From: a virus
Taxonomy: Duplodnaviria > Caudoviricetes
DNA: 40,899 nt
Virus record (IMG/VR): IMGVR_UViG_3300044701_000880
Coordinates: 1-40,899 of that record
Reading direction: 5' to 3' (one strand)
Part shown: piece after piece, positions 1 to 40,899 of the stretch
Position numbering within the stretch: the stretch's first letter is position 1
Layout: each line of letters begins with the position of its first letter
Notes under the pieces: model-generated
What the model was told of the DNA's origin: nothing
Seen by the model: the letters and a program-made list of their open reading frames with translations, nothing else
Databases searched by the model: none
Made by a program: the position numbers and the translations under genes

Positions 1-527
1 CTCAGCTACCTTCCTAGCGATGTCATGGTCTTGACTGAGTAACCAGTCGCCAGTAAAGCTAGGTGCACCCTTAGGTGTTCTTGGATACCAGATGTTTAGC
101 TTATCAAAGGCCTTGCCAAGGTCATCGGCTGACCAAGGTTCTAGCATAAAGCCAGCGGTGTCTCGTAATTCGCCAAGCATCCTTGCTTCGTCTTTTAGAT
201 ACTGATCATTGAGTTGTTCAGCACGGTCAACGTCAACACGGACCCCCTTAAACCGCATGTCAAGCATGATTGGCACTAGGTCTGATTCAAGGGTAAAGAT
301 ATCCCATAGGTCTTCTTGCTTCAAGATCTTTTCTTGGATAGCCCAAATCTTAAGTGGTAAGGCAGCATCAGCCTCGGCGTATGGACCTACAAATCTTGCA
401 GGTAATTTCCATAGACCACTCTTAGGATCAACACCAAAAGCGCTTGCAGCTTGACGCAGCAAGGTCTCATCTTTATCGATGCCAAGATACTTCTTAGCTA
501 ACGCAGACAAGGAATAACTTACTTGGT
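1..527. repeat. Terminal overlap, copy 1 (matches 40373-40899)
   Basis: Direct comparison: 1-126 and 401-527 are identical to the window end, with about 14 substitutions between 127 and 400. Indicates a circular assembly. Confidence 0.97.
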
Positions 528-921
528 TCTCATCAATCAATGGTTCAGCAATTTGAATATCCCAAATCGGACCGTTAACTTGAATGCCTTCAGCGCGTAA
601 CCATTCTAAATCATAGATTAGATTAGCCCCAACTTTCGGAGTTTCTGTCTTAAGGACATCCTCCAAGAATCGAAGTACACTAGCTTTAGGCAGATTATCG
701 CCACCTTCATGCGCAATCGGAAAGTAGCCACAGTAATCCTCAGTCGCGATAGAGACGCCCACAACGTAGCCATCATATCTCACCCCGCCCGGACCGCGCT
801 CCATCAGGAATGGATCTTTTGTCTCGCAGTCGAATGATATGATTTTTGCTGCCGCCAGATTGGGGAATTCCTTTGGGGGAGACCAATCCGATCTCGGCAT
901 AAACATGCTCAATTGGTCCAT
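1..921 (-). CDS. polA: DNA polymerase family A, N-terminal part (3'-5' exonuclease region); continues at the other end of the window
   Basis: Hand translation from ATG at 921: MDQLSMFMPRSDWSPPKEFPNLAAAKIISFDCETKDP... with ExoI-like DxE. In frame with ORF 39425-40882 through the overlap (about 622 aa total). Confidence 0.9.
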   Translation of the reverse strand, partial: MDQLSMFMPRSDWSPPKEFPNLAAAKIISFDCETKDPFLMERGPGGVRYDGYVVGVSIATEDYCGYFPIAHEGGDNLPKASVLRFLEDVLKTETPKVGANLIYDLEWLRAEGIQVNGPIWDIQIAEPLIDENQVSYSLSALAKKYLGIDKDETLLRQAASAFGVDPKSGLWKLPARFVGPYAEADAALPLKIWAIQEKILKQEDLWDIFTLESDLVPIMLDMRFKGVRVDVDRAEQLNDQYLKDEARMLGELRDTAGFMLEPWSADDLGKAFDKLNIWYPRTPKGAPSFTGDWLLSQDHDIARKVAE

Positions 922-1348
922 GATATATCCACTCACCTTTCCATAAATTTTTAGCTTCTAAATTGACGTACTCCTCTAAAAAGACAATACGTTTACAGCC
1001 AGTATTCATCAACAACTTCACACAGGTTACACAGGGACTGACGGTTATATACGCCGTTTGAATCTTACTGGTATCCTTACACTGCAGCAATGCGTTTTGC
1101 TCGGCGTGTATAGCTTCACACTTGTCCAGACCAGTTCCTGGTTCGTAACTCGCGCCAGCACAAGGATGATCGAGACAATGATCAGCCCCACGAGCAACGC
1201 CGTTATAACCAGTAGCAAGTACGTGCCGATTATCGTCCACGAGAATACAGCCAACGCGCCGCCTTCTACACGTCGCACGCAGCGAGACGAGTGCAGCCAT
1301 CGCCAAAAAGTACTCATCACGCTTAGGTCTCCAGTATTCCAGTTCCAT
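773..1348 (-). CDS. dCMP deaminase
   Basis: HAEQNA and SPCVTC zinc motifs, RATCxRRxVGC, TGYNG. ATG at 1348 has a GGGAG RBS (track start 1372 is TTG). Confidence 0.92.
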   Translation of the reverse strand: MELEYWRPKRDEYFLAMAALVSLRATCRRRRVGCILVDDNRHVLATGYNGVARGADHCLDHPCAGASYEPGTGLDKCEAIHAEQNALLQCKDTSKIQTAYITVSPCVTCVKLLMNTGCKRIVFLEEYVNLEAKNLWKGEWIYHGPIEHVYAEIGLVSPKGIPQSGGSKNHIIRLRDKRSIPDGARSGRGEI

Positions 1349-2075
1349 CAGCTTTCTCCCATAGCCATTCAATTAAGTCATCACCATGTTGAAACCATGG
1401 GATCGTTGGTATCTCAAGAATCTCGCATTGACCGCGGACAATTAACTCAGCTAGTGTCCACTGTTCCTCATACAAGTGCATGCTGCCTGCTTGTAAGATT
1501 AACGAACCAAGTTCTGGTTTATGCTTAAGATGACAGATCACGTACCTTGCTAGCATGCTAAAGTTAAAGACATCGTATGGCCAACCGAGCCACAGGTCTG
1601 AACTGCGCATGGTATCAACCACATGCAATAGACCGTCACGGATTAAAAATTGCACACTAACCGTACATGGAATGTCCTTGCTTTTAGCCGGATTAGGGCG
1701 CCAAATCGTAAGGACTGCTTGCCTTGTATCTGGATCATCATTCAAAGCAGCAATGACTGAGTGCATTTGATCGCGGATCATGGGCCCATACGCACCATTG
1801 AAAAAGTAACCATCATCACTAAAATTACTGATGGCTTTACTATAAGGGGCAATCGAGTTAACGCGATTATCGCCACTGAGAATCCATGCAGCTTCGGCTG
1901 CCATAAACTTATAACCTAACTTACGTTCCTTGACCGTTAATACTGGCCATTCCATTGGGATCGAAGTCTGATAACCAATTAGCTCTTTAATACGTTTACC
2001 TCGTGGTGAGGCGATTGTGCCTTGTGTTAAACAAGTTTCAATCGTTTGTAACCATTGACTGTTAGTGGATAGCAT
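1323..2075 (-). CDS. Thymidylate synthase homologue, probable dCMP hydroxymethylase/methylase
   Basis: DIPCT catalytic Cys137, MRSSD, SMHLYE. Asp168 lies at the position of ThyA Asn177. Confidence 0.85.
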   Translation of the reverse strand: MLSTNSQWLQTIETCLTQGTIASPRGKRIKELIGYQTSIPMEWPVLTVKERKLGYKFMAAEAAWILSGDNRVNSIAPYSKAISNFSDDGYFFNGAYGPMIRDQMHSVIAALNDDPDTRQAVLTIWRPNPAKSKDIPCTVSVQFLIRDGLLHVVDTMRSSDLWLGWPYDVFNFSMLARYVICHLKHKPELGSLILQAGSMHLYEEQWTLAELIVRGQCEILEIPTIPWFQHGDDLIEWLWEKADGTGILET

Positions 2076-3063
2076 GACGTAATACCTCTCTCATCTTATC
2101 AACGTGCCCTTCAAATCGACGCATGTATGAGGGGTGTTTGATGTGTTCAAAAATAGTCCAGCCCTGGCTCACTACGTGATCTAGTGATTTTTTACCTGCG
2201 CAAATAACCTTTAAATGATTGTGCTGCCACAAAAGACTATTGACAAGCTCATTCGGTGAGCCATCGGCATGGTAAGCATTGGCCCACATAAACAACTCTT
2301 CGCTGGCAGGAACCCGATGTAAAGCTTCGGACAGGTACAAGCTTGAATGTCCGTAGTCATAGAATGGCCAAGCCATGTTCCTAAACTTAGGGTTGACTTG
2401 ATCACCAACGAATAGATACTTTGCCGTGGCTAAATGACCAAGCATGTTTGGATTATTAGGATCAAGTGCTGGTTGGAACTGAGCAGCACGCCAGCTTTTA
2501 GCTCGCTCAACTGCCCATTCGGTAAACATGCCAAGACGATCACCCCAGGTTTCAATGGTATAGGGTAGATGATCTTGCCGATGGTACAAACCACCGCTGC
2601 GAGTCAGATAGTCAGTGTAGTTCTCGTCATCTTTGTGGTCTTTGTTGCCAAAGAATAGATCACGGTAACGCTTAGCTACGCCAGTTGTGTCGTCGTACAT
2701 CTCATCACGAAGTTCTTTTAATTCGCTAAACTTCTTGTTGTAGTCGACAAGATCAGCTGGCAAACAATAGATGTACATGGCAGCGTGTTTACGCGCAATG
2801 CGATCCATCATGCGTCCCATCATGGGCCATTGACTACCACCACGATATTCAGCGGCATACAGAGCTTCAGAAGGCCACCATCTGTCGATGATCACATCTT
2901 TCTTTTGCCTGATTGCCCACCGTATGGCTGCCGTATGATACAAGAACATCTGGTCTGGCCAGCGATAACTAAGGTGTAGGTACTTAGCATCTAACGTCTT
3001 GGCCATAAATTGACCTAACGTTGTCTTGCCTACCCCATCAGGACCTTCAAGAATAAAGATCAT
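2062..3063 (-). CDS. P-loop nucleotide monophosphate kinase fused to C-terminal uracil-DNA-glycosylase-like domain
   Basis: ILEGPDGVGKTT Walker A and IIDRW (TMK-like). C-terminal LFVGDQ...WANA...VICAGK...HPSY pattern. Confidence 0.75.
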   Translation of the reverse strand: MIFILEGPDGVGKTTLGQFMAKTLDAKYLHLSYRWPDQMFLYHTAAIRWAIRQKKDVIIDRWWPSEALYAAEYRGGSQWPMMGRMMDRIARKHAAMYIYCLPADLVDYNKKFSELKELRDEMYDDTTGVAKRYRDLFFGNKDHKDDENYTDYLTRSGGLYHRQDHLPYTIETWGDRLGMFTEWAVERAKSWRAAQFQPALDPNNPNMLGHLATAKYLFVGDQVNPKFRNMAWPFYDYGHSSLYLSEALHRVPASEELFMWANAYHADGSPNELVNSLLWQHNHLKVICAGKKSLDHVVSQGWTIFEHIKHPSYMRRFEGHVDKMREVLRHAIH

Positions 3064-3425
3064 TGAGCTTCTCCGACGAGGTCACCATGGTAGGGAGGTT
3101 CCCAGCCTTCTGGCTTGATGACGTCGTATTCACCACTACGTTGAGAAGGACCACGCACCTTGGCCATGTTTGCAGCATGGACACGGCGCCAAGCTTCGTC
3201 AAAATCAAAGCCGTGCAAATAAGCAGTGCCCATGGCTACATAGACCAGATCAACAAGTGCATCTAGTTCATCAGCTCGTTTACTGGCTAAGATGTATTCG
3301 TCAGTCTCTTCAATCAGAAAGTTAGTTCTAAAGCTCGCCAGGTCTTGTGGTAACGACCTTGGCGGGCCGTCATAGACAAGACCAAACTTCTCGTGAAAGT
3401 CCTTTATGTCTTGCCATTGACTCAT
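3060..3425 (-). CDS. MazG-like/all-alpha NTP pyrophosphohydrolase (dUTPase/dCTPase-like)
   Basis: FHEKFG, IEETDEY, DALVDLVY, VHAANMAK, KPEGW. ATG 3425 with AAGGAG RBS and ATGA overlap. Confidence 0.85.
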   Translation of the reverse strand: MSQWQDIKDFHEKFGLVYDGPPRSLPQDLASFRTNFLIEETDEYILASKRADELDALVDLVYVAMGTAYLHGFDFDEAWRRVHAANMAKVRGPSQRSGEYDVIKPEGWEPPYHGDLVGEAQ

Positions 3426-4261
3426 ACCATTAACTCCTTCCATTGCTCGCTACTGCCCCAACGACCTTCAACGTCGCGAAGATCAGCAAATTTACGATTG
3501 CCACCTGGATTCCACTTTAGTTGCCATAAGCAATTGCGTGAATATTGTGGATACAAGGGCGCGAAGATGGTAGCAAGGTAGTTGCTATCGTAGTAGTCGC
3601 GCATCGCATCAAAGACCTCCTTGTGGGCAGCTGGTAGTTCGTCTTTGTAATCACGCATCGAGGCAAACGTGCCCCAGTGACCTTCAACACGCCAACCAAT
3701 ATCCTCAAGAAGGGCACCAAATGCAGCATAGGTCATCTCATTGACGTGGTTTGCAGCAGCACCTACATCAGGATCCCAACATGGGGTTGATAAGAACAAC
3801 GTGCCTTCTGGTTCTAACAGGGTGCCAAAGTTAGCCAATAGACGACGACAGTGTTCTGGCTCGATGTGCTCGGCAACCTCAAAACAGACGATCGTATTTG
3901 GTTGCTCCTGAAGTTCTTCAACCTTTAGGATTGCAGCATCACATTCAGATAACAATTGACTAGGTTTCCATGTGCTCTTTGCAAACTGGGCTGGCATCTC
4001 TAACTTAGAGATATCAGCTGCAGCATAAAAAGCAGGTCCTAACCTAGATGAATGCATCAACTTGGCCAACGGCATTTCCTTACCGCAGCCAACGTCTAGA
4101 ATCCTAGCCGTCTTGTAACGACCACCTTGATGTAACCACTTGACGACGTGCGTCCATCTGAGACAATGGGCAATATAATCGCGGTGTAAAAACCCACGAT
4201 CCTCAGCATTGTCAATGCTTAAAAAGGTCTTATCGACCGCCTTACCTCGTTCATTTGCCAT
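3422..4261 (-). CDS. Class I SAM-dependent methyltransferase (small-molecule/nucleotide type)
   Basis: ILDVGCG motif I, CFEVAEHI, LEPEGTLFLSTP. Confidence 0.85.
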   Translation of the reverse strand: MANERGKAVDKTFLSIDNAEDRGFLHRDYIAHCLRWTHVVKWLHQGGRYKTARILDVGCGKEMPLAKLMHSSRLGPAFYAAADISKLEMPAQFAKSTWKPSQLLSECDAAILKVEELQEQPNTIVCFEVAEHIEPEHCRRLLANFGTLLEPEGTLFLSTPCWDPDVGAAANHVNEMTYAAFGALLEDIGWRVEGHWGTFASMRDYKDELPAAHKEVFDAMRDYYDSNYLATIFAPLYPQYSRNCLWQLKWNPGGNRKFADLRDVEGRWGSSEQWKELMV

Positions 4262-8528: not shown

Positions 8529-9798
8529 TTGGGCTCCAAGGCCTTATCAGTTTCCATTATGGAAATTTTTAGAAGACGGCGGTAAGCGAGCTGTTGCTGT
8601 TTGGCATCGGCGCGCAGGTAAAGACTTGCTGTCAATTAATTGGTGTGCAGTGTCAGCATTGACAAGGCCTGGGTTATACTGGCACTTGTTTCCAACTTAT
8701 AACCAGGGGAGAAAGATCGCTTGGGACGGGATGACCCGTGACGGTAGGAAGTTCATTGACCACTTTCCAAAGGAAACTTGGGAGGCAGTCAACAATACCG
8801 AGATGCGATTAACATTAAAGAATGGCTCGATCTATCAGGTGGTGGGTACCGACAACGTTGACCGATTGGTTGGTGCAAATCCCGTCGGAGTCGTCTTCTC
8901 TGAATACTCCCTCCAAGATCCCCGAGCATGGGATTACATTCGTCCCATCTTGGCTGAAAATGGAGGATGGGCATTATTTATTTATACCGCTCGAGGTCGA
9001 AACCATGGATACGATTTACTCAACATGGCAAGACGAAACGAGAAGTGGTTTCAGCAAACACTGAGTGTTGATGATACCAGGGCCATTAGCCAAGAGGCGG
9101 TAGACGAGGAACGTGAGTCAGGCATGCCTGATGAGATGATCCAGCAAGAGTTTTATTGTAGCTTTGATGCCCCACTAGTAGGTTCTTACTATGGTAACGC
9201 GATGGCTAGGTTACTTGCTGATGGTAAGATTACCGGGGTTCCATATGAGTCACGCCTTGAGGTCCATACATCTTGGGACCTTGGCATGGGTGATTCAACC
9301 TCAATTATCTTCTTCCAGCGCCACGGTGGTGAGATCAGGATCATTGATTACTACGAGAGTAGCGGTGAGGGTTTAGCCCATTACGTTAAGATCTTAAAGG
9401 AAAAAGAATACATCTACGGCGAGCATATTGCACCACATGACATTCAAGTCAGGGAGATGGGCACAGGAAAGAGTCGGTTAGAAGTTGCCCGTGAACTGGG
9501 GATTAGGTTTCGTGTTGCTGCTAACCTTCGGATTGATGATGGTATTGAAGCAGTTCGGACAACCTTACCTAAGTGTTTCTTTGATGAGAAGAAGTGCAGC
9601 CATCTAATTGAAGCCTTGCGCCAGTACCGTAAGGACTTTGACGAGAAGAACAAAGTTTTCCGAGATCGTCCGTTGCACGATTGGACCAGTCACCCAGCGG
9701 ACGCGATGCGTTACCTAGCTGTTGGACTACGCGACCAGTTAAATATGAACGCAAAGAAATTACCGCGGATGGCTGACATGGATTATCAGATCTTATGA
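8503..9798 (+). CDS. terL: Terminase large subunit
   Basis: PRPYQ, HRRAGKD Walker A, VVFSE Walker B, WDLG nuclease motif, HDWTSHPADA. Confidence 0.95.
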   Translation: MAEITVPVDWAPRPYQFPLWKFLEDGGKRAVAVWHRRAGKDLLSINWCAVSALTRPGLYWHLFPTYNQGRKIAWDGMTRDGRKFIDHFPKETWEAVNNTEMRLTLKNGSIYQVVGTDNVDRLVGANPVGVVFSEYSLQDPRAWDYIRPILAENGGWALFIYTARGRNHGYDLLNMARRNEKWFQQTLSVDDTRAISQEAVDEERESGMPDEMIQQEFYCSFDAPLVGSYYGNAMARLLADGKITGVPYESRLEVHTSWDLGMGDSTSIIFFQRHGGEIRIIDYYESSGEGLAHYVKILKEKEYIYGEHIAPHDIQVREMGTGKSRLEVARELGIRFRVAANLRIDDGIEAVRTTLPKCFFDEKKCSHLIEALRQYRKDFDEKNKVFRDRPLHDWTSHPADAMRYLAVGLRDQLNMNAKKLPRMADMDYQIL

Positions 9799-10244
9799 TC
9801 AGACCGTTTACCTTAGACGATCTACCCACCATGGTTGAGCTAGGAAAGATCATGCATGAGGAATCGGTTTACCGTGATCTTGACTTTGATGCGCAAAAGT
9901 TAATTGACCTAGGCCATCACTATATTGCTAACCCCGAAACTTGCTGGTCAGCAGTTGCTGAAGTTGATGGTAAAATCATAGGTATGTACGCCGGATACAT
10001 TACGGAGTACTATTTCGGTAAGGACCTAATTGCACAAGATTTGCTTCTCTTTGTTGATCCTACTAAACGCGGTGGCCTTGCTGCCGTGAAGTTGATTACA
10101 GCATTTGAGGACTGGGCTTTTGCAAAAGGTGTAAAGGAAGTATGTCCTGCGTCGTCGACGATGGTAGCTCCTGAAAGAACTGCCATGTTGTACAACTTGT
10201 TAGGATATACTAACGTCGGTAGTTTATTTAAAAAGAGGAGATGA
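9795..10244 (+). CDS. GNAT-family acetyltransferase
   Basis: MIRPFTLDD, LFVDPTKRGG, AFEDWA, LYNLLGY. Confidence 0.8.
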   Translation: MIRPFTLDDLPTMVELGKIMHEESVYRDLDFDAQKLIDLGHHYIANPETCWSAVAEVDGKIIGMYAGYITEYYFGKDLIAQDLLLFVDPTKRGGLAAVKLITAFEDWAFAKGVKEVCPASSTMVAPERTAMLYNLLGYTNVGSLFKKRR

Positions 10245-15418: not shown

Positions 15419-17433
15419 TGGCTAAGAGTACCCCGATTCAGACTAACTTTACCGGCGGTGAAATTAGTCCGCGGCTGCATGGCCGGGTTGACCTTGCTAA
15501 ATACGGATCAGCGTTAGAGCGCTGTGAAAACTTTATTGTTTTCCCTCACGGGGGTATGACTAAACGACCTGGTACTAGGTTTATTGCTAGTACTAAGGTC
15601 ACAACGGCCGTCAAGTTAATTCCGTTTATCTTCTCAACCACGCAATCATACATTTTAGAATTTGGGAATTTATACGTCCGTTTTTATCGTAATGAAGGCC
15701 AGCTATACAACGGGGGAAGTATCTATGAAATTGCTACACCATATACAACAGCTGATCTTGATGGCCTAGACTTTACGCAGTCTGCGGACATTTTATATTT
15801 AGTTCATAAAAGTTATCCAATTAAACAGTTAAATCGTCTAGGGGCTACAAACTGGACATTAACTGATTTTGCATTTAAAGATGGTCCGTATGATGCTGTT
15901 AATACAACAGCTACTACTGTAAATCCGCAGCATACTACTGGATCAACTACTATCACGGCAAGTACGGGTATTTTTGCTTCAACTGATGTAGGCAGGTGGA
16001 TTAGGATTGGCCATTCAACGGCTGACTGGGGTGCAGCTAAGATTACGGCTTATACCAGTGCCACACAAGTAACTGCCGCGGTAGATGCAGATTTGCCATT
16101 TCACGCAACAAGCGCAACAGCTACATGGCGACTTGGCAGCTGGTCTAATACCACTGGATGGCCGTCAGCCGTGTCATTCTTTCAAGAACGATTATTCTTT
16201 TCAGGATCCACTCAGAAGCCCTCTACCATTTGGGGGAGCAGGTCTGGTGACTTCCTTAGCTTTAGTCCTACAAATGAAAACGGTGAAGTCCTAGATGATT
16301 CTGCATTGAATTTTACATTGTCGACAGATCAGGTTAATGCCATTAGGTGGATCTATGGCGAAAAGCGCTTACAGATTGGTACATCAGATGGTCCATTTAT
16401 TCTATCGTCTGGCCGAAACTTTGAGGCGCTAACACCAACCAATGTGACCGTATCACGTGAAACAACAGATGGAAGTGCCGACGAACGGGTTGTTGGAGCT
16501 AGTAGAACTACCCTATACATTGACCGGTCAAGATTAAAAGTACGTGAACTTGCCTATGACGTAAATGCCGAGGGGTATACTTCACCAGACATGACTCTGT
16601 TAGCCGAGCATATTACCACTGGTTACATTAAGCAGATTGCTTACGCAAGATCACCAGACAATCTAGTTTGGGTATTACTACAAACTGGCGAACTTCGTTG
16701 CTTAACATACGAGCGTGAACAAGAGGTTGTGGCTTGGCATCGACACATCATTGGTGGCACTAATACGTTTGTAGAATCAATTGCAGTTATTCCTAAAAAT
16801 GACGAGTCGTCTGAACTTCTTTATATGGTTGTGCGTCGAACAATTAATGGGGCTACTGTAAAATATGTAGAATACTTAGAACGATCATTTGATACGGCTA
16901 AAGGTGACACCCTTCAACAAGCCCACTTCGTAGATAGCGGGTTGTCTTACTCTGGTACTGCTACTAGTACATTAACTGGATTAAGCCATTTAGAAGGCCA
17001 GGTTGTTCAAGTCTTTGTTAATGGAGCTGTGCATCCTGATCGAACAGTAGCAAGCGGTCAGATTACTTTAGATCGCCCGGCTACAACGGCAGCCGTAGGT
17101 CTTGGCTACGTAGCTAAAGCCCGCACATTAGACCCGGAAGTTCAGACAGAAAACGGACCAAGTCAGGGTAAAATAAGACGTATTGAACGCGTCACCTTTA
17201 GGGTTGTAGATACGTTTAACTTGAAGTTTGGCGTCAGTGAGAGTAATTTAGAGATTATTCCATTTAGGGAGGCAGGTTCAGCCATGGGTAGTGTTGAATT
17301 ATTTAGCGGAGATAAACGGGTATTATTGCAGCATACGCCAACTCGCGAATTTACTTTGACTATTCAATCTGATACTCCGCATCCCGCCACAATCTTAATG
17401 ATTATGTACGCCATGGTGGTATCTGAACGATGA
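15418..17433 (+). CDS. Tail tubular protein B / nozzle (gp12-like)
   Basis: QTNFTGGEISPRL, TQSADIL, GWPSAVSFFQERL, QEVVAWHRH. Confidence 0.9.
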   Translation: MAKSTPIQTNFTGGEISPRLHGRVDLAKYGSALERCENFIVFPHGGMTKRPGTRFIASTKVTTAVKLIPFIFSTTQSYILEFGNLYVRFYRNEGQLYNGGSIYEIATPYTTADLDGLDFTQSADILYLVHKSYPIKQLNRLGATNWTLTDFAFKDGPYDAVNTTATTVNPQHTTGSTTITASTGIFASTDVGRWIRIGHSTADWGAAKITAYTSATQVTAAVDADLPFHATSATATWRLGSWSNTTGWPSAVSFFQERLFFSGSTQKPSTIWGSRSGDFLSFSPTNENGEVLDDSALNFTLSTDQVNAIRWIYGEKRLQIGTSDGPFILSSGRNFEALTPTNVTVSRETTDGSADERVVGASRTTLYIDRSRLKVRELAYDVNAEGYTSPDMTLLAEHITTGYIKQIAYARSPDNLVWVLLQTGELRCLTYEREQEVVAWHRHIIGGTNTFVESIAVIPKNDESSELLYMVVRRTINGATVKYVEYLERSFDTAKGDTLQQAHFVDSGLSYSGTATSTLTGLSHLEGQVVQVFVNGAVHPDRTVASGQITLDRPATTAAVGLGYVAKARTLDPEVQTENGPSQGKIRRIERVTFRVVDTFNLKFGVSESNLEIIPFREAGSAMGSVELFSGDKRVLLQHTPTREFTLTIQSDTPHPATILMIMYAMVVSER

Positions 17434-17876
17434 TTAGAAAAGCCGGCGTCCCTGATGTTGATGCTATCGTAGCAATGGCAGGACCATTTTTAAATTATTC
17501 GCAGTTCACCGATTACACTGAAATTGAACGCGACGATGTAGTGTTCGGAATTTGTAATTTGATTGATAATGGTATTGTCTTTGTAGCAGAAAAAGAAGGC
17601 CAAATTGTTGGGTGTATTTGCGGGATTATCACAAATTTTTGGTTTGCAAGAAATACAAAGGTAGCCGCTGAATTAGGTTGGTGGGTTAATGAGGAACACC
17701 GAGGGTCTACGGCTTCAATTAGGTTATTGCAAGCATTTGAAAACTGGGCTAAAGAACACGGAGTTAAAGCAATTACAATGTCTGATCTTGTTATTAACGG
17801 CAACACTCCAGCAGGTCCAATCTATAAAAAACTTGGGTATGAGCTTGTTGAACGTGCTCATGTAAAGGGAGTTTAA
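17430..17876 (+). CDS. GNAT-family acetyltransferase (second copy)
   Basis: MIRKAGVPD, WWVNEEHRG, AFENWA, IYKKLGY. Confidence 0.8.
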   Translation: MIRKAGVPDVDAIVAMAGPFLNYSQFTDYTEIERDDVVFGICNLIDNGIVFVAEKEGQIVGCICGIITNFWFARNTKVAAELGWWVNEEHRGSTASIRLLQAFENWAKEHGVKAITMSDLVINGNTPAGPIYKKLGYELVERAHVKGV

Positions 17877-18355: not shown

Positions 18356-20641
18356 ATGCCAAGAATTCCAACATATCAAGAAAGTCAAATTAGTGGCCTA
18401 GGTTTAGGTGGTCGTCCTATGTCAGGTCTAGACAGCCGTCAAATTGCGGCAATGGCTGAAACTGCCGGTGGTGGTCTTGTAAAAACTGGCCAAGCAATTA
18501 CGCAACTAGCATCTAATTTTGCAGACGTAGAAGTTCAGCGCCAAAAAGATACTGCAGCAATTGAACATGCTACTATTACTTCTTCCTTTGGCACGGAACT
18601 TACTAAGCGAATTAGTGATCTTCGTGAGACTGACAGCGCAAATACTAAGAAATATTTAGATCCAGACTATGGTGGTACATCACAACCAGATACGCATTTT
18701 AATCAAGTAGATAAAGCTTTTAATGAATTAGTTAATGATCCTAAGTGGAAACATTCTAACCGTTACGCGCAGCAAATGTGGAATCAATATATCGGCCAGG
18801 TAAAGGGGTCGGTTGCAAGAGAAGCTATTCAATTTGAAGCAAATCAACGGGTTGAAGCTCGTCAAATTGGCTTGATGGAAGCTAGAAAATCTGACATTAT
18901 TGCGGTTGGCTCTGATCCAACTAAATTAGACGCCATGATCGCTAAATGGGAAACTTTATACAACACCCTTGATGACCCCAAGACCAAAGAAATTGAAGGG
19001 TACCGTGGGGTTGTTGACAATAAATTTTTAGCAAGAATGCGAGATGCTCGCGGTGATTTTACAATTGCTGCTTATGAAACCATGATTACAAATAGTCCTG
19101 GGGCGGCATATAAATCACTTCAGCAGCTTCAAAAAAATCCAGCCAGAATGGAACAACTTGGTCTAGATCCGAATGAGTTTAATAAATTATTCCGCGCGGC
19201 TAAAAATACGTATGAAGCTGGTAATGTCTTACAGCAGTATAATTTAGAGAAAAATTTTGAATCTCATCTTGCCTTGATTCAAAGCACTGGCACAGGTTTA
19301 CCTCAATTCTCTGGAAAAAATGGCGTAGCGAACGCGGTATCTGGAGTAATAGGTGGTGATCGCGCTGTAGTAATGGCAGATAAAATGCAGCGTCAAGTTA
19401 ATATTGCGCAATCTAGTTGGGATGCCGCATCTAGTTTAAGGTTTTTACCTGTCACCGAAATGATTACTGGCTTTAATAAATTAACACCAACACCAAATGC
19501 TAATGCCGCTGATCAACTTAAGGTTAAAGAAAATGTTGGTCAATTAATAAACGGCTGGATTCAACAACGGGCGCAAGATCCTGGGGCATTTTGGTCGCAG
19601 CATCCCGCTGTACAACAAAGGCAAAGAACTGGCGATATTGCAGGAGCTCGTGACCAGATGCTTGTCTTACAGCGTCAAGCCGGGGTAGAACCATTTAACT
19701 ACGCGGTTTTAAGCCAGCAAGAACGGTCTAGTGAGATTAGTTATCTGCTTAAAGCCCCTCCAAATGAAGTTGCCGGCAGATTACAAAGTTTAAGAACTAG
19801 ATATGGTGGGCAAAACGGTGAATTTAGGGGTCAAGCCGATATTGTTTTTAGGCAGTTAACAACTGGTGAAGGAGCTTTACCTCCTGAGTATATGTTTGCA
19901 GCAAGAGCTTTAGGCACACCAGCTGAAACAAAAATTCTTAATGCATTAAAACTAGACGATAAAACCCTTACTAGTTTAGCGCCAAGCCTTCAAAAAGGAA
20001 TTAGCTATAAGGATATTGAAGGTACTTCCGTGCAAATGGGTGACACATATCTTAAAGCAATTACTGGCGGGTTAAGCAGTCGTCTAGGAACTTTTGAAGC
20101 CGCCTCAAAATTAGTCTCTAAAATGGCAACAGCCGAGTTACTAAGCACAGGTAGCACTAATAGTACTAGCGCAGTAAAACGCGCTTGGCAAGATGTGATG
20201 CAAAGTTTTGACGTCACCGGCGGAACCTACTTTATTCCTAAGGCAAAACCTGGCGAACCTAATACTTACAATATGGCTCAGATCCATGAAAATGCTGCCT
20301 TGATTAAGGCCAATCCAGTATATCTTGCGCAAAAATTTAAGATCGCAGTCCCCGGTTCTATGGATCCAGCGACTGCACAACAACCTGCTTGGATGAGCGA
20401 GAGTTATTTAAAGTCCCTAGCTAAACACGGGTATTGGATTACCAATCAAGATGGCACAGGATTAGATTTAATTATCAATTCAAACGGTGTCCCTGAAAAA
20501 GTACCTACTACCGATGGTGGTACTGTAAGCATTCCATTTTCACAACTAAGTAATAAGCTTCCTGAAGATGTTAGAAAAACGCTTACTACTAAACCAAGTG
20601 GAGTAGGTTTTGGTCGTGGCGGCTTTGGAATCTATAACTAA
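18356..20641 (+). CDS. Internal virion (ejection) protein
   Basis: MPRIPTY start, helical composition, synteny. Confidence 0.7.
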   Translation: MPRIPTYQESQISGLGLGGRPMSGLDSRQIAAMAETAGGGLVKTGQAITQLASNFADVEVQRQKDTAAIEHATITSSFGTELTKRISDLRETDSANTKKYLDPDYGGTSQPDTHFNQVDKAFNELVNDPKWKHSNRYAQQMWNQYIGQVKGSVAREAIQFEANQRVEARQIGLMEARKSDIIAVGSDPTKLDAMIAKWETLYNTLDDPKTKEIEGYRGVVDNKFLARMRDARGDFTIAAYETMITNSPGAAYKSLQQLQKNPARMEQLGLDPNEFNKLFRAAKNTYEAGNVLQQYNLEKNFESHLALIQSTGTGLPQFSGKNGVANAVSGVIGGDRAVVMADKMQRQVNIAQSSWDAASSLRFLPVTEMITGFNKLTPTPNANAADQLKVKENVGQLINGWIQQRAQDPGAFWSQHPAVQQRQRTGDIAGARDQMLVLQRQAGVEPFNYAVLSQQERSSEISYLLKAPPNEVAGRLQSLRTRYGGQNGEFRGQADIVFRQLTTGEGALPPEYMFAARALGTPAETKILNALKLDDKTLTSLAPSLQKGISYKDIEGTSVQMGDTYLKAITGGLSSRLGTFEAASKLVSKMATAELLSTGSTNSTSAVKRAWQDVMQSFDVTGGTYFIPKAKPGEPNTYNMAQIHENAALIKANPVYLAQKFKIAVPGSMDPATAQQPAWMSESYLKSLAKHGYWITNQDGTGLDLIINSNGVPEKVPTTDGGTVSIPFSQLSNKLPEDVRKTLTTKPSGVGFGRGGFGIYN

Positions 20642-23600
20642 TGGCAAAACTTAAAGCTAGGGATCCAAACGTTTCGGCGGAAGATCCACTTTCTCTTAAA
20701 CCATTTACTGGTGAAACCAGTCCTATCAGTTTAAATTTTACTGACGAGGCGCCTTCACGCTGGTTTCAATCATTTGGTTTTGATGGAGTCAGAGCAGACC
20801 GCGCAGAGGTTAGAGGAGCTGCCTGGGATAAAGCAGACTCCGGTCTTAAGTCTATTTTAAATTTAAGTGAGCTTGATAGAGCCGAAGAACTTACAAAATA
20901 TTCTGATGAAGAACTACGATCTTTATATCGTAAACGACATTCAAGCGCTAGAGGCGGCGGAAGTACTGGCGCAAGGCGTCGTCCTACCTTAGAAGAATTT
21001 GGTATTGCCGACCGCCCAGTTTACTTAAGTCCAGATGAAGCAAATCAACAATATGGTATTCCTGGTCACTTAACTTGGGATAAACCTATTAGCAGTCTTG
21101 TGGCATCAATTCAGCACAAACGTAAACTTGATGAAGTTAGATACAGCAATATTGTAGGCCGTGCCCAAGGTTTTGTTGATAACGGCATGGCGCTTGGTAT
21201 TGAAATGGGAGCTTCTTTGTTAGACCCTGTTGGCTTAGCTATTGGTTTTATTCCATTAGTAGGTCAAGCAAGATATGGAAAACTTGCCGAATCTGGTTTT
21301 AAGACAGCATCTAGAATGGCAAGAGGTGCTGAAGCTGGGTTTGTTGGCACATTAGGTGTTGAACCATTTATTTATGCCGATAAGGTACAAAGTAAAGCTG
21401 ACTATGACATGTATGATTCTTTGGCAAATGTGGCATTTGGCACGGTTGCCGGCGCTGGATTGTTTGCAGTAGGTGGCAAGATAGCTGATGGTGTTAGAAG
21501 TCTTCGTAAAGAAAGCCACGTCAAAGCGTTTGATTTATCAATTAAACAATTGGCAGCAGGTAAGAATGTTGAAGTAGGACCAGTTGCTACACATGGTGCC
21601 GGCAACGGAAAAGTTACCGCCATTAACATCGATGACTTTGATACAACCCCAACTTCAATTAATAGCAAGGCTATTGAACCAGCCCCTGAATTAGACCCTG
21701 AACTTAAAAAATTAAGTCCAATTAAAGAATACCCGCCAGCAGCTGACGTAACTAAAAGTCTAGAGTTAATGGATAAGGTTACAACCGGACCTACAAATCG
21801 TATTACTGTGCAGCAAATTAAACAAGCCGTAGATACGCCAGCTCTCAAAGAAGCTATTGATCAAGCAGCTAAGATGAACCTTGGCAATAACATTGCCTTC
21901 TACATTACTACAGCAGATGGAAACGTTGTTGCTGTAAAAGCTGGCAAAGATAAACGTTTAGCCGGGGCTCCAATGTCCTTGATTACTTCGCCTTCGTATG
22001 CGGCTGGCGGAGTAATTGATATGACTAAGGTTACAACACAGTTGCAAGATCTATTGGCTATTCATGGTTTGTCTGGCGATGAGGGTATGGCCATGGCTTA
22101 TAAGGGTTCTTATAAGCTCGACAAAGGCAATATCACGCACATCATTGAAATCAATAAAGTAGCATTTGACCCGCTACAAAATCAGCATAACATTGTCATT
22201 GCGCCATTTGACAATATGAAAGGCATGTTCTCACAAGATCCTGCTGATCAAGTATTTTCAGATTTAAATCCTCGCGGTAAGGAAGGCGTATTAGCCACAG
22301 CGCAAGATTTAAAATCCTTTGTAGCGGATGATACCCCATTAAAGTATAAATCCTTTGGCGGGTTTGACGAAACTTTAGATGTTACACAGTTAAAGAGTGT
22401 TGGGCCACAACAAGGTACTAATCCTGGTGGTTTACATAAAGACCAAGTTACTGGTGGGGATCTTTACGTAAAATACCAAGATCCTAATCGTACGATGAAT
22501 GAATGGATTGCAGCGACACTATATCGCTGGTTTAACGTACCCATGCCAAAAACCACAATTGTTACAGATCAAGGTAAAACAATTGGTGTAGCGTCAGAAC
22601 TAATTCATCAAGGCAAACCCCTGTCTCCAGACGAGTTTGTCAAATTAGATCCAGAAGTACAGCGCGCATTTTTACGTCATTTTATGGTTGACGCATTCCT
22701 AGGTAATTGGGATGTGGTTGGAAACGCACCCAACTGGAATATGCTGTTGATGCCTAGTGGCGAAGTAATTAGGATTGATCCGGGTGGCGCTTTACTTTAT
22801 CGCGCCCAAGGATTGCCTAAAGGTAAGGATTTTGGACCCACGGTTAAAGAGTTTCAAACGTTGCAAAGTTCGTCAATGAACCCGGCAGCCGCTAAAGTAT
22901 TTAAATTAGCAAAAAGTGTTGATGACATTGATGATGCGGTCTACCGTATCTTGCGTGTTCCTGAATCGGAATTTATTAAGTTAGTTGATACAGCAAAGCA
23001 GCATGGTCTGGGTGAAGCCGAAGCGAAAGTTTTACTTGAAACTTTGTTAGCAAGACGTTTAGACTTACAAAATACATACGGTGACGCAGCTAAGAAAGCC
23101 GCCAAGGATCAGAATAAGATTCAATTTACTAGCCAAAAAGAAGCTCTTGATTTTTTAAATACTACTAAAGAAGCGACGTTAAAGCACATTAACAACGATG
23201 AAAAGAGCGTCATTAAACAGTATACTGGTTCTTACTATCAAAACCTAAATAAAGCCCTTTGGGACAAGGCAACTAATGGTACTGCCATTCCAGGTAATCT
23301 ACAGCAAGACATTGATCTGCTTGATTCAGCCATTGCAAAAGCTCCTAAGTTAAGTGAAGCAATTGAGGTATGGCGCGGCAACATTGGTCACAATGCGTTT
23401 AATAGCTTATTAGCAGATGCTGGATTATCTACATTTGGTAAGGGAGCAAAAATTAATGGTGAGGATGCTTATAACATTCTTAAGGCGCTTGAAGGTAAAG
23501 TAATTGAATTACCTGGTTTTACTAGTACATCTCTTAGCTATAACTTTGCTAAAAACTGGCATGGAAGTTACCAGGGTATGAGTTCAATCGCGCAAATTAT

Positions 23601-24114
23601 TGTGCCGCAAGGACAACAAGCCTTGATGGTAGGACCACATCTTGGACTTCAGCAAGAATATGAGGTGCTGTTACCTAGATCTGCTGTATATAGATTAGTC
23701 CAAGTATTACCACCAAAAGGTACTGGGGGTGATCCTACTTTGTTATTACAAGTTGTTGATAAGAATTCGCACTTACCCTTTGAAAAACCAAGCGGGGACA
23801 TGTTAAAAACGGCTAAGCAATGGAAAGAAAGCGGCAGTAATGCAGCTGATACCACGCCATTAGCAAATGAACCAGTTGATGCTGTTGGTGATACTTTAAA
23901 AGGCGGAATGGATGACCTTGCTAAAGTGACACAAGAACTAGAGGATTTACAAACTTCGCTTGATTCACAGATGGCAAACTTAGATCCTGCTTCAATGAAA
24001 GTTTTAGAAAAAGAACTTAAAGCAATTAATGAACAAGCAGATATGGCAGCTGCTGATGCACAAAATCTGTATAAGGCAGCACAAGCTGCCGCTGTTTGTA
24101 TCAATAAGGGATAA
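20641..24114 (+). CDS. Internal virion protein with kinase-like and ADP-ribosyltransferase domains
   Basis: GTNPGG..YVK..NE..GNWD..N..RIDPG kinase-like motifs; VWRG / FTSTS / QEYEVLLPR ART motifs. Confidence 0.8.
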   Translation: MAKLKARDPNVSAEDPLSLKPFTGETSPISLNFTDEAPSRWFQSFGFDGVRADRAEVRGAAWDKADSGLKSILNLSELDRAEELTKYSDEELRSLYRKRHSSARGGGSTGARRRPTLEEFGIADRPVYLSPDEANQQYGIPGHLTWDKPISSLVASIQHKRKLDEVRYSNIVGRAQGFVDNGMALGIEMGASLLDPVGLAIGFIPLVGQARYGKLAESGFKTASRMARGAEAGFVGTLGVEPFIYADKVQSKADYDMYDSLANVAFGTVAGAGLFAVGGKIADGVRSLRKESHVKAFDLSIKQLAAGKNVEVGPVATHGAGNGKVTAINIDDFDTTPTSINSKAIEPAPELDPELKKLSPIKEYPPAADVTKSLELMDKVTTGPTNRITVQQIKQAVDTPALKEAIDQAAKMNLGNNIAFYITTADGNVVAVKAGKDKRLAGAPMSLITSPSYAAGGVIDMTKVTTQLQDLLAIHGLSGDEGMAMAYKGSYKLDKGNITHIIEINKVAFDPLQNQHNIVIAPFDNMKGMFSQDPADQVFSDLNPRGKEGVLATAQDLKSFVADDTPLKYKSFGGFDETLDVTQLKSVGPQQGTNPGGLHKDQVTGGDLYVKYQDPNRTMNEWIAATLYRWFNVPMPKTTIVTDQGKTIGVASELIHQGKPLSPDEFVKLDPEVQRAFLRHFMVDAFLGNWDVVGNAPNWNMLLMPSGEVIRIDPGGALLYRAQGLPKGKDFGPTVKEFQTLQSSSMNPAAAKVFKLAKSVDDIDDAVYRILRVPESEFIKLVDTAKQHGLGEAEAKVLLETLLARRLDLQNTYGDAAKKAAKDQNKIQFTSQKEALDFLNTTKEATLKHINNDEKSVIKQYTGSYYQNLNKALWDKATNGTAIPGNLQQDIDLLDSAIAKAPKLSEAIEVWRGNIGHNAFNSLLADAGLSTFGKGAKINGEDAYNILKALEGKVIELPGFTSTSLSYNFAKNWHGSYQGMSSIAQIIVPQGQQALMVGPHLGLQQEYEVLLPRSAVYRLVQVLPPKGTGGDPTLLLQVVDKNSHLPFEKPSGDMLKTAKQWKESGSNAADTTPLANEPVDAVGDTLKGGMDDLAKVTQELEDLQTSLDSQMANLDPASMKVLEKELKAINEQADMAAADAQNLYKAAQAAAVCINKG

Positions 24115-39424: not shown

Positions 39425-40899
39425 TTATCTAATCTCACCCCAATTAGGTCCTATTTCTAAATCGACCTTTAATGGAACATTTATTTTAACACAGTTTTCC
39501 ATAATCTCTTGAATCTTTTTGCCTTCATTACTGTCAGTGATACTGAAGTCTAGTTCATCATGGACTTGCAAGTGAGCAACATAACCTTCTTTATATAAGT
39601 CAACCATTGCCTTCTTAGTCATATCAGCAGCACCACCTTGAATGAGCGCATTCAATGACTTATGGACCATGGACCGTCTCAAGGGTCTACCAGCCCATAC
39701 ACGTTCAGCATCTTCCCTGGTCAATGGCTGTTCACGGTTTGGCCAAGTGTTTTGTGCATCAGCCGGTTCCCAAAGATTAAAGTGACGCTTACGACCTAGC
39801 AATGTCTTAATAAATCCCTTGTCAGCTACTGATTGGCTGCACTTGTGAGCAAGTTGCCTTACAAACGGAACACGTTGATGATACTGTTCAAACAAAGGTC
39901 TTGCCTCTTCATTACTTAAACCTAGTTGGGTAGCAAGCTTATACACACCCATGCCATAAAACATGCCTAAGTTAATCACCTTGGCTTGCTTACGTTTAAT
40001 GCCTGCCATATCCGCAACCATTTGATGGAAGTCGGTGTCGCCAGTGTATTGCTGCACAGCTTCATCAGCACCTCGTAAACCTAACAAGTCCGCGTAATGC
40101 ACAAGGACCCGGGGCTCTTGTTGGCTGTAGTCGCAGACTGCCCATTGTTTGCCTTCATCTGGCAAGAATAAACCGCGGATCAATGGACCCCAATGTTCGT
40201 CGCGTGCAGGTACTTGCTGCAAGTTAGGTGTGCTGCTGCTAAACCTACCAGACCTTGTACCGTCAGCGTCCTTACGAAGGGCGTGGAATTGACAATGGAT
40301 CCTGCCTGATACATTCATCTTCAGTACCATGCCTTCAATAAAGTCACGACGCATCTTATTGATCTTGCGGTACTCAGCTACCTTCCTAGCGATGTCATGG
40401 TCTTGACTGAGTAACCAGTCGCCAGTAAAGCTAGGTGCACCCTTAGGTGTTCTTGGATACCAGATGTTTAGCTTATCAAAGGCCTTGCCAAGGTCATCAG
40501 CTGACCAAGGTTCTAACATAAACCCAGCGGTGTCTCGTAATTCGCCAAGCATCCTTGCTTCGTCTTTTAGATACTGATCATTGAGTTGTTCAGCACGATC
40601 AACGTCGACACGGACCCCTTTAAACCGCATGTCAAGCATAATTGGCACTAGGTCTGATTCAAGGGTAAAGATCTCCCATAGATCTTCTTGCTTTAAGATC
40701 TTCTCTTGGATTGCCCAAATCTTAAGTGGCAAGGCAGCATCAGCCTCGGCGTATGGACCTACAAATCTTGCGGGTAATTTCCATAGACCACTCTTAGGAT
40801 CAACACCAAAAGCGCTTGCAGCTTGACGCAGCAAGGTCTCATCTTTATCGATGCCAAGATACTTCTTAGCTAACGCAGACAAGGAATAACTTACTTGGT
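39425..40899 (-). CDS. polA: DNA polymerase family A, polymerase domain (continues from 921..1)
   Basis: SGRFSSSTPNLQQ, motif A DYSQQEPR, motif B AKVINLGMFYG, motif C QVHDEL. Confidence 0.95.
   Translation of the reverse strand, partial: QVSYSLSALAKKYLGIDKDETLLRQAASAFGVDPKSGLWKLPARFVGPYAEADAALPLKIWAIQEKILKQEDLWEIFTLESDLVPIMLDMRFKGVRVDVDRAEQLNDQYLKDEARMLGELRDTAGFMLEPWSADDLGKAFDKLNIWYPRTPKGAPSFTGDWLLSQDHDIARKVAEYRKINKMRRDFIEGMVLKMNVSGRIHCQFHALRKDADGTRSGRFSSSTPNLQQVPARDEHWGPLIRGLFLPDEGKQWAVCDYSQQEPRVLVHYADLLGLRGADEAVQQYTGDTDFHQMVADMAGIKRKQAKVINLGMFYGMGVYKLATQLGLSNEEARPLFEQYHQRVPFVRQLAHKCSQSVADKGFIKTLLGRKRHFNLWEPADAQNTWPNREQPLTREDAERVWAGRPLRRSMVHKSLNALIQGGAADMTKKAMVDLYKEGYVAHLQVHDELDFSITDSNEGKKIQEIMENCVKINVPLKVDLEIGPNWGEIR
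40373..40899. repeat. Terminal overlap, copy 2 (matches 1-527)
   Basis: Direct comparison. Confidence 0.97.

Follow-up and report, generated by a model that had tools for sequence, protein, structure and literature searches.

Why would a phage join a nucleotide kinase to a domain with the fold of a DNA glycosylase? The question is raised by one gene of the viral record IMGVR_UViG_3300044701_000880 (Duplodnaviria; Caudoviricetes), analysed here over its whole length of 40,899 nucleotides (the window). Its product (P0001) consists of an N-terminal kinase of the thymidylate kinase (TMK) type and a C-terminal domain from the superfamily of uracil-DNA glycosylases (UDG). The kinase-UDG fusion is real and widespread, and it marks phages of the 5-hydroxymethylcytosine (hmC) type. 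The answer that we favour, at about an even chance and judging from sequence and predicted structure, is that the kinase passes 5-hydroxymethyl-dCMP (hm-dCMP) onward, while the UDG domain may be an active glycosylase that removes bases of the 5-hydroxymethyluracil (hmU) type from the phage's own DNA. The domain probably also removes uracil. The fusion is likely to reflect co-inheritance and co-expression of two activities rather than a channel between them. Phages with hmC in place of cytosine evade restriction but also leave the reach of host uracil repair; the family looks like a widespread answer to this loss, unannotated and hidden under the label 'thymidylate kinase'.

Two folds and an active site

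An AlphaFold model of the fusion protein has a mean pLDDT of 95.7 and a pTM of 0.93. A search for homologues returned 86 proteins, and the majority of them, 320–350 aa long, span both domains; the fusion is therefore no assembly artefact. Sixty of the 86 form alignment A1, near-duplicates and partial matches having been left out.

An earlier note on this DNA had called the N-terminal part TMK-like, and residues 1–192 are indeed a P-loop nucleoside monophosphate (NMP) kinase of the YorR/TMK type, with the P-loop GxxxxGK[TS], the DR motif, and the NMP-kinase fold. Structure comparison with VIA matched residues 1–197 to YorR (2axp; Z 13.5, rmsd 3.4, 166 aligned) as well as to TMKs, and 2axp also matched the kinase at E 1.6e-10. 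The Pfam family Thymidylate_kin matches at E 1.8e-5, under its cut-off, and the cut-off of the dTMP kinase equivalog TIGR00041 is missed (30.6 vs 83.25 bits). No second kinase was found among the window ORFs scanned.

The C-terminal domain alone gives no sequence match in Pfam, PHROGs, or PDB, nor does a domain-alone sequence search of cultured phages. It is the structure that identifies it. With the domain model, all 21 Foldseek matches at E<=0.001 are family-4 UDGs or UdgX, and in VIA ranks 1–12 are all UDG-superfamily chains, the first chain titled as another fold appearing at Z 6.1. UdgX (6ail) scores Z 12.0 (rmsd 3.1, 135 aligned), and TthUDGb and TmUDG score 11.5 each. Residues 192–333 taken from the full-length model give similar values (UdgX Z 11.6, T. 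maritima UDG Z 11.2). The domain thus has the alpha/beta/alpha fold of the superfamily, as the earlier note had proposed, and also its motif order: motif A (Gly with a polar or acidic residue), the Asn strand, and the His-Pro of motif B. The four motifs named in that note (LFVGDQVN, WANA, VICAGK, and HPSY) are all present in this order. A domain-only alignment (A2, 48 rows) was built from the window and 47 of 50 candidate loci; three rows were dropped, one for 99% identity, one for a wrong cut, and one for truncation. Pfam UDG (PF03167) matches 12 of its 48 rows at E<=1, all of them relatives (best 2.5e-6), and not the window row. The A2 profile aligns GDQVNPK with GEQPGDK of UdgX and WANA with VTNA, at an E of 0.054 that is weak alone.

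The register of the active site follows family 4. In the alignment to T. thermophilus UDGa (1ui0), G220/D221/F227/P233/F234/N262 correspond to G40/E41/E47/P53/F54/N80, and H310 is the motif-B His. The spacing in motif A is exact: G220 and P233 are 13 residues apart in 38 of the 48 domains, as are G40 and P53 in 1ui0. Conservation was read from the top 150 among 2,137 cluster representatives, which were ranked by a profile containing the active-site residues, so that the counts are partly circular. D/E221, N262, and H310 are intact together in 148 of the 149 representatives in which all three positions are covered. N262, H310, and P311 are invariant (150/150), as is P233, R316 is kept in 149 of 150, and the Y313 position is aromatic in 57 of the 60 homologues. 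In the glycosylase DR0022 the equivalents of D221, N262, and H310 are essential for activity (PMC9796141). The active UDG domain of the phiLo polymerase uses E53 and H178 and grips the DNA backbone through F181 and R185 (PMC13697223). Counted from the His, Y313 and R316 stand at +3 and +6, like F181 and R185, in a comparison of offsets rather than a superposition; these shared offsets would favour DNA as the substrate.

The gate of the base pocket differs from family 4. The position of E47 (F227 here) is Glu in 0/60, 0/48, and 4/147 sequences, and the acidic GEEED loop of family 4 is replaced by a family-specific N-P-K-x-R. In DR0022, Glu at the E47 position abolishes hmU activity, and Ala permits it (PMC9796141). 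Together, the conserved residues of catalytic type and the missing gate Glu support the altered specificity that the earlier note had suggested.

By its motifs the domain falls outside family 4, UdgX, MUG, and SMUG1 as these are defined (PMC5449639). In place of GE(A/G)PG, the family-4 motif A in that definition, it has G[DE][QRK][VILS]NPK, and the Glu47 gate that excludes T and hmU in family 4 is absent, as are the 4Fe-4S cluster cysteines. No Cys is conserved in the domain (0–5 per domain, none in 29 of 150), and the KCRPP loop has no counterpart. In what we take to be the position of the UdgX His109 covalent-capture loop, the Asn-to-Gly stretch is 20–34 residues long in the 48 domains and holds no conserved His. 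The motif A forms GINPG of MUG/TDG and GMNPG of SMUG1 are not found in the domain either. The domain is nevertheless likely to work like a glycosylase of the family-4 or phiLo type with a remodelled C5 pocket.

Three groups of known enzymes can be compared with it. Family-4 UDGs (T. maritima 1L9G, T. thermophilus UDGa 1UI0) and UdgX share the fold (VIA Z 11.5–12.0), the motif A register, the PF aromatic, the equivalents of Asn80 and His155, and the HP-x-Y/aromatic form of motif B. They differ in their size (190–205 aa vs about 135 aa here), in their 4Fe-4S cysteines, and in not being fused to a kinase; moreover, motif A is GE[AG]PGEEE in family 4 and G[DE]QVNPK here, with Glu47 gone and the post-Asn loop 13 residues shorter. 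Polymerase-fused phage UDG domains (phiLo 9qhs, VIA Z 11.0) are likewise joined to a replication or nucleotide gene in a modified-pyrimidine phage, whereas here the partner is an NMP kinase, C rather than T is modified, and the sequence family is separate. Among these PolA-fused domains, the SPO1-like and the SP15-like ones of phiLo and YerA41 are active, and the N4-like ones are inactive (PMC13697223). SMUG1, DR0022, and BdiUng have lost the gate residue, which leaves the C5 pocket open, and their role is the one proposed here. They are, however, cellular and unfused, their motif A is GMNPG, LEAP, or GQDPA, and their structures are more distant (VIA Z 8.9 for SMUG1, 7.6 for BdiUng).

The cassette and the spread of the fusion

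The fusion gene lies in a cassette that consists, in order, of a methyltransferase, a PRA-PH enzyme, the kinase-UDG fusion, a thymidylate synthase (TS) homologue, and a dCMP deaminase, followed by PolA; this order recurs across IMG/VR loci (Table 1). The best PDB match of the TS homologue is the CMP hydroxymethylase MilA (E 1.7e-25). The rule for hm-dCMP synthases is Asp at ThyA positions 143 and 177 with Asp kept at 169 (PMC13326640); the TS homologue has Asp at all three, and its predicted product is thus 5hm-dCMP.

Table 1. Positions of the fusion gene, its domains and motifs, and the surrounding genes in the window
Feature	Position (nt)	Strand	Remarks
Kinase-UDG fusion gene (P0001)	2062..3063	-	333 aa, one uninterrupted frame
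YorR/thymidylate-kinase-type NMP kinase domain (aa 1-192)	2488..3063	-	P-loop GPDGVGKT at 3022-3045, invariant D60-R61
Minimal UDG-superfamily domain (aa 195-333)	2065..2481	-	without Fe-S cysteines
Motif A LFVGDQVN (aa 217-224)	2392..2415	-	G220, D221 = G40, E41 of T. thermophilus UDGa
WPF	2362..2370	-	F234 in place of family-4 PF aromatic
WANA strand (aa 260-263)	2275..2286	-	N262 = N80, reader of uracil N3/O4 in family 4
VICAGK (aa 286-291)	2191..2208	-	
Motif B HPSYMRRF (H310, P311, Y313, R316, F317)	2113..2136	-	HPSY = aa 310-313, nt 2125-2136
TS homologue, predicted 5hm-dCMP synthase	1323..2075	-	D134/C137/D160/D168 = ThyA L143D, C146, D169, N177D
dCMP-deaminase-family gene	773..1372	-	
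PRA-PH/MazG-like nucleotide pyrophosphohydrolase (putative dCTPase)	3060..3443	-	
Class I S-adenosylmethionine (SAM) methyltransferase, UbiG/Hen1-like	3422..4261	-	invariant E128, E131, H132, H172, E175
Family A DNA polymerase, N-terminal part	1..936	-	after cassette; rest at 39425-40897 across end overlap

The link between the domain and this kind of TS is strict. The UDG-bearing loci number 195 and form 92 groups at 90% identity; 189 of these loci have a TS, and the other six end at a contig edge. In an alignment-based count the D/C/D/D signature is present in 188 of the 189, the remaining TS being truncated. A dUMP-type (Asn177) TS stands beside the domain in none of these loci, as expected if hmU is a substrate. 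Because many loci were retrieved via the fusion or the TS, the fair subset is the 27 non-redundant groups retrieved by UDG motifs alone, and all 27 carry the hm-dCMP signature. The domain could serve as a marker, since in these data it always flagged a TS of the hm-dCMP type.

In the genome, hmC, perhaps further methylated, would replace C. The methyltransferase may modify the hydroxyl of hmC, perhaps by O-methylation; no such O-methylated base was found among the matches listed by one literature search. The methyltransferase is present in 55 of 57 close groups, but 21 of 24 distant groups have none within the locus, and for that reason a dependence of the domain on it was rejected. The deaminase is absent from the locus in 12 of the 88 groups with room to see it. 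Two other pathways were rejected: a 5-methylcytosine (Xp12-type) genome with T:G repair, since the TS has Asp at position 143, and a 5-hydroxycytosine pathway, since it keeps Asp169. No ThyX was found in the genome, and no second TS-type gene, AP (apurinic/apyrimidinic) endonuclease, or ligase among the window ORFs scanned. In some loci other genes occupy the place of the methyltransferase: a carbamoyltransferase in L131, and a pyridoxal-phosphate-dependent (PALP) enzyme with two unknown ORFs before the kinase-UDG gene in L157 (L157:4084-5007), an arrangement that is a candidate for a different hmC hypermodification. C5 cytosine DNA methylases occur in three cassettes (L080:6022-8001, L182:4191-5702, and L183:4458-5972); the one of L080 is fused to a UbiG/Hen1-like methyltransferase.

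The family comprises 2,137 clusters at 50% identity (E<=0.001), the 150 best of which are nearly all kinase fusions. Among these representatives, the kinase match is full in 106, truncated in 23, and absent in 21. Seven of the 21 (P0184, P0189, P0207, P0215, P0223, P0228, and P0229) have, as judged by eye, an eroded kinase-like N-terminus without a P-loop, and their UDG site is intact; in one the domain is N-terminal to another protein, and 13 are fragment-like. P0173 joins PRA-PH, kinase, and UDG in one protein. Stand-alone domain genes of 168–169 aa, with GDTPG as motif A, are found near a kinase and a TS at L188:7893-8399 and L192:7875-8378. These two loci are on jumbo-phage contigs of 184 kb and 350 kb, where genes for sugar nucleotides (UDP-galactopyranose mutase, epimerase) lie nearby, and short viral clusters in Atlas resemble the stand-alone domain, as a lead only. 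At least 15 loci come from GTDB genomes (22 of 64 parts), and none of them matches the UDG motif B region.

Since the kinase and UDG halves each occur alone, the domain appears to have a job of its own, useful but non-essential. It is under purifying selection (dN 0.074, dS 0.65 against L002), with a dN/dS of about 0.11 compared with 0.09 in the kinase. On a quick tree of the TS, presence of the domain changes at least eight times, only two of the changes being forced by starred branches. In one close relative (G001, L038:8001-8534), whose TS is 76% identical, the kinase stops cleanly at 177 aa without a UDG domain; the methyltransferase and deaminase are retained.

The fusion is also carried by the cultured phages AXL3, PW916, DSL-LC01, and Bacillus phage G. 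AXL3 and PW916 have the same five-gene order from methyltransferase to dCMP deaminase, and DSL-LC01 carries the cassette too. In AXL3 the protein is gp29 and in phage G it is gp315, both with no annotation beyond thymidylate kinase. AXL3 DNA resisted 35 of 37 restriction enzymes, all with G/C in their sites, and the two that cut have A/T-only sites (PMC7504290). Phage G gp315 (L229:6928-7923) was reached by a structure search of viral proteins, and no characterisation of it was found in the literature. It is similar in being a 331-aa kinase-UDG protein with the motif B HPAYVKRF, and genes for a dCMP deaminase and a D143/D177 TS adjoin its own. It differs in its motif A, AQNPG, which is nearer to the MUG/SMUG1 type, and in a longer post-Asn loop; its cluster has two alpha-glucosyltransferases and no methyltransferase in that role. 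This protein clears the Pfam UDG cut-off (48.2 vs 24.3 bits) and aligns with the A2 profile in hhalign (prob. 89, E 2.2e-6). From its genes, phage G DNA is predicted to contain glucosylated hmC.

Related systems have been described. YorR of SPbeta (2AXP/3KB2) and the phage kinases DLP3_078 and RB69p045 have the same fold, P-loop, and DR motif and lie beside a dCMP-type TS (PMC13326640); they stand alone, whereas the fusion appends a UDG domain. The MetaGPA cassettes share the core of TS, PRA-PH, dCMP deaminase, carbamoyltransferase, and PolA, and the accessible passages of these papers do not mention a kinase-UDG fusion or this methyltransferase (PMC8670742, bioRxiv 2024.12.05.627091). A literature search found no paper on the fusion, although supplements may list it. 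By term look-ups it is absent from the accessible texts of PMC8670742, bioRxiv 2024.12.05.627091, PMC7824862, PMC7504290, PMC13326640, PMC13697223, bioRxiv 2023.12.21.572611, bioRxiv 2025.10.29.685425, and PMC13160076.

What the domain may remove

On the reading that we favour, the PRA-PH enzyme would strip dCTP and the TS homologue would make hm-dCMP, which the fused kinase would phosphorylate; in a genome without ThyX, the deaminase would supply dUMP to the host. hmU could then arise in two ways. Deamination of hmC in DNA would create mutagenic hmU:G pairs, and the dCMP deaminase may leak onto hm-dCMP, yielding hm-dUMP, which could reach DNA by way of the same kinase. The pockets of UNG-type and family-4 enzymes exclude hmU (PMC9796141, PMC5449639). 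Because a C5-substituted base does not fit the uracil-specific glycosylases of the host, the phage would carry its own glycosylase with an open C5 pocket. The fused domain would excise hmU, and the AP endonuclease, polymerase, and ligase of the host would complete the repair. A human parallel exists, in which thymidylate kinase phosphorylates hm-dUMP, which is then incorporated and excised by the UDG-family enzyme SMUG1, while DNPH1 guards the nucleotide pool (PMC10603095). A metal-free glycosylase of 135 aa with an open C5 pocket could also serve in hmU/hmC mapping. Among the three roles that the earlier note had offered, repair of a deaminated modified base fits best. The other two fare less well: attack on unmodified host DNA fits poorly, since the Asn that reads uracil N3/O4 never varies, and channelling of free nucleotides to the kinase is weakened, since domains with an intact site persist with a decayed kinase (7/150) or alone (L188, L192).

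Several points weigh against hmU repair. The gate position is frequently a bulky Tyr, Phe, or His that could still block C5 groups. The stretch from N262 to G290 has 28 residues compared with 41 in family 4; being 13 residues shorter, it has therefore lost a loop near the sugar. Some of the association with the TS may be hitch-hiking, since the kinase to which the domain is fused is itself linked to the TS. The leak through the deaminase may be small, as activity on hmdC in vivo was seen for only 7 of 90 cassette deaminases (bioRxiv 2024.12.05.627091). YorR-type kinases have no established substrate, and in T4-like phages the kinase assayed on the modified dNMP was a different one (PMC13326640). 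The domain is dispensable: in 14 of 106 non-redundant TS rows the kinase has no UDG domain, and no separate UDG copy was found in 10 UDG-less records, four of them at least 90% complete (the positive control gave 5/5). Nor does the UDG-less G001 have a GC-to-AT excess (58 GC>AT vs 59 AT>GC, at 1,476 four-fold sites near saturation). Its GC4 of 0.407 is within the 0.354–0.457 of five carriers. The locus GC of UDG-less loci is bimodal and gives no support for the mutation reading; palindrome avoidance is weak and uninformative.

It is conceivable, if unlikely, that the domain acts in DNA on uracil only, where the dCTPase and the deaminase give rise to a flood of dUMP, some of which the kinase lets become dUTP, and the domain removes the resulting uracil, like the polymerase-fused UDGs of SP15-like phages. 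The nearest structures, uracil-specific family-4 enzymes and the phiLo domain, agree with this, and the phiLo domain excises dU and not bulky C5-linked T (PMC13697223). The bulky residue that often fills the gate points the same way, and with neither ThyX nor a further TS-type gene detected, clearance of dUMP falls to the host. It fails, however, to explain the hm-dCMP-type TS beside all 27 groups retrieved by UDG motifs; the deaminase is missing in the 12 of 88 groups mentioned above, and the gate Glu has given way to the N-P-K-x-R loop. A quite improbable proposal places the domain at the nucleotide pool: the UDG fold would hydrolyse free hm-dUMP (or dUMP) at its N-glycosidic bond ahead of the kinase, as a phage analogue of DNPH1. 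All fusion partners are pool enzymes (the kinase, and PRA-PH plus kinase in P0173), the domain is stripped down with one loop lost, the conserved Lys226 could hold a phosphate, and a UdgX crystal with dUMP exists (6ajp). Human DNPH1 does the same job with a different fold (PMC10603095). Against pool editing, base flipping in DNA is described as the driver of catalysis by the UDG fold (PMC10603095). The basic and aromatic motif-B helix, a DNA contact in the phiLo domain, is moreover retained, and the persistence of domains without a working kinase speaks against an obligatory coupling. We know of no UDG-fold enzyme that acts on free nucleotides. If true, pool editing would make this the first UDG-superfamily enzyme to act on pool nucleotides, with the domain proofreading for a kinase as a phage counterpart of DNPH1. 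In a variant, the substrate may be a deaminated nucleotide of methylated hmC, and the genomes may carry an undescribed O-methylated hmC.

Two further explanations are given very little weight. The domain would, with a slim probability, be no catalyst but a module that binds pyrimidines or DNA and regulates the kinase or sets its location, as the inactive UDG domains of N4-like polymerases would suggest by analogy. The confident packing of the two domains (pTM 0.93), a motif A that differs from all named families, and the dispensability of the domain in some lineages are in line with such a module, and inactive phage UDG domains exist (PMC13697223); however, conservation here is highest at the residues that inactive domains have lost, and the UDG site outlives the kinase P-loop in the seven representatives named above. 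Least probable of all is an offensive glycosylase in the manner of Brig1-3 that damages the DNA of hosts, where C is unmodified, or of co-infecting phages carrying modified thymine or hmU. Repurposed UDG homologues that excise glucosyl-hmC, hmC, and modified T are known (bioRxiv 2025.10.29.685425, PMC13160076), and modified phages often degrade unmodified DNA (PMC7824862). Against offence, the invariant Asn, present in 150/150 representatives, reads a 4-oxo base and disfavours cytosine, excision of C would presumably free the base and not the dCMP that the TS needs, and the gene lies within a nucleotide-supply operon. An hmU glycosylase would strike hmU phages as a side effect, which the data cannot separate from repair.

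Other genes of the window

The window is a whole podophage-like genome, circularly permuted, with genes for portal, capsid, nozzle, and PolA. Its ends overlap over 527 nt (1-527 vs 40373-40899; 513 identical, 14 differences), and the polymerase gene spans the genome join. Two GNAT acetyltransferases are encoded within the virion gene block (9795-10244 and 17430-17876, both on the plus strand). In the internal-virion block, a 1157-aa protein (20641-24114, plus strand) has a C-terminal ADP-ribosyltransferase domain (PF03496, E 7e-27) and a region at 620–760 that looks kinase-like by eye. It is possibly an Alt-like injected enzyme directed against the bacterial host.

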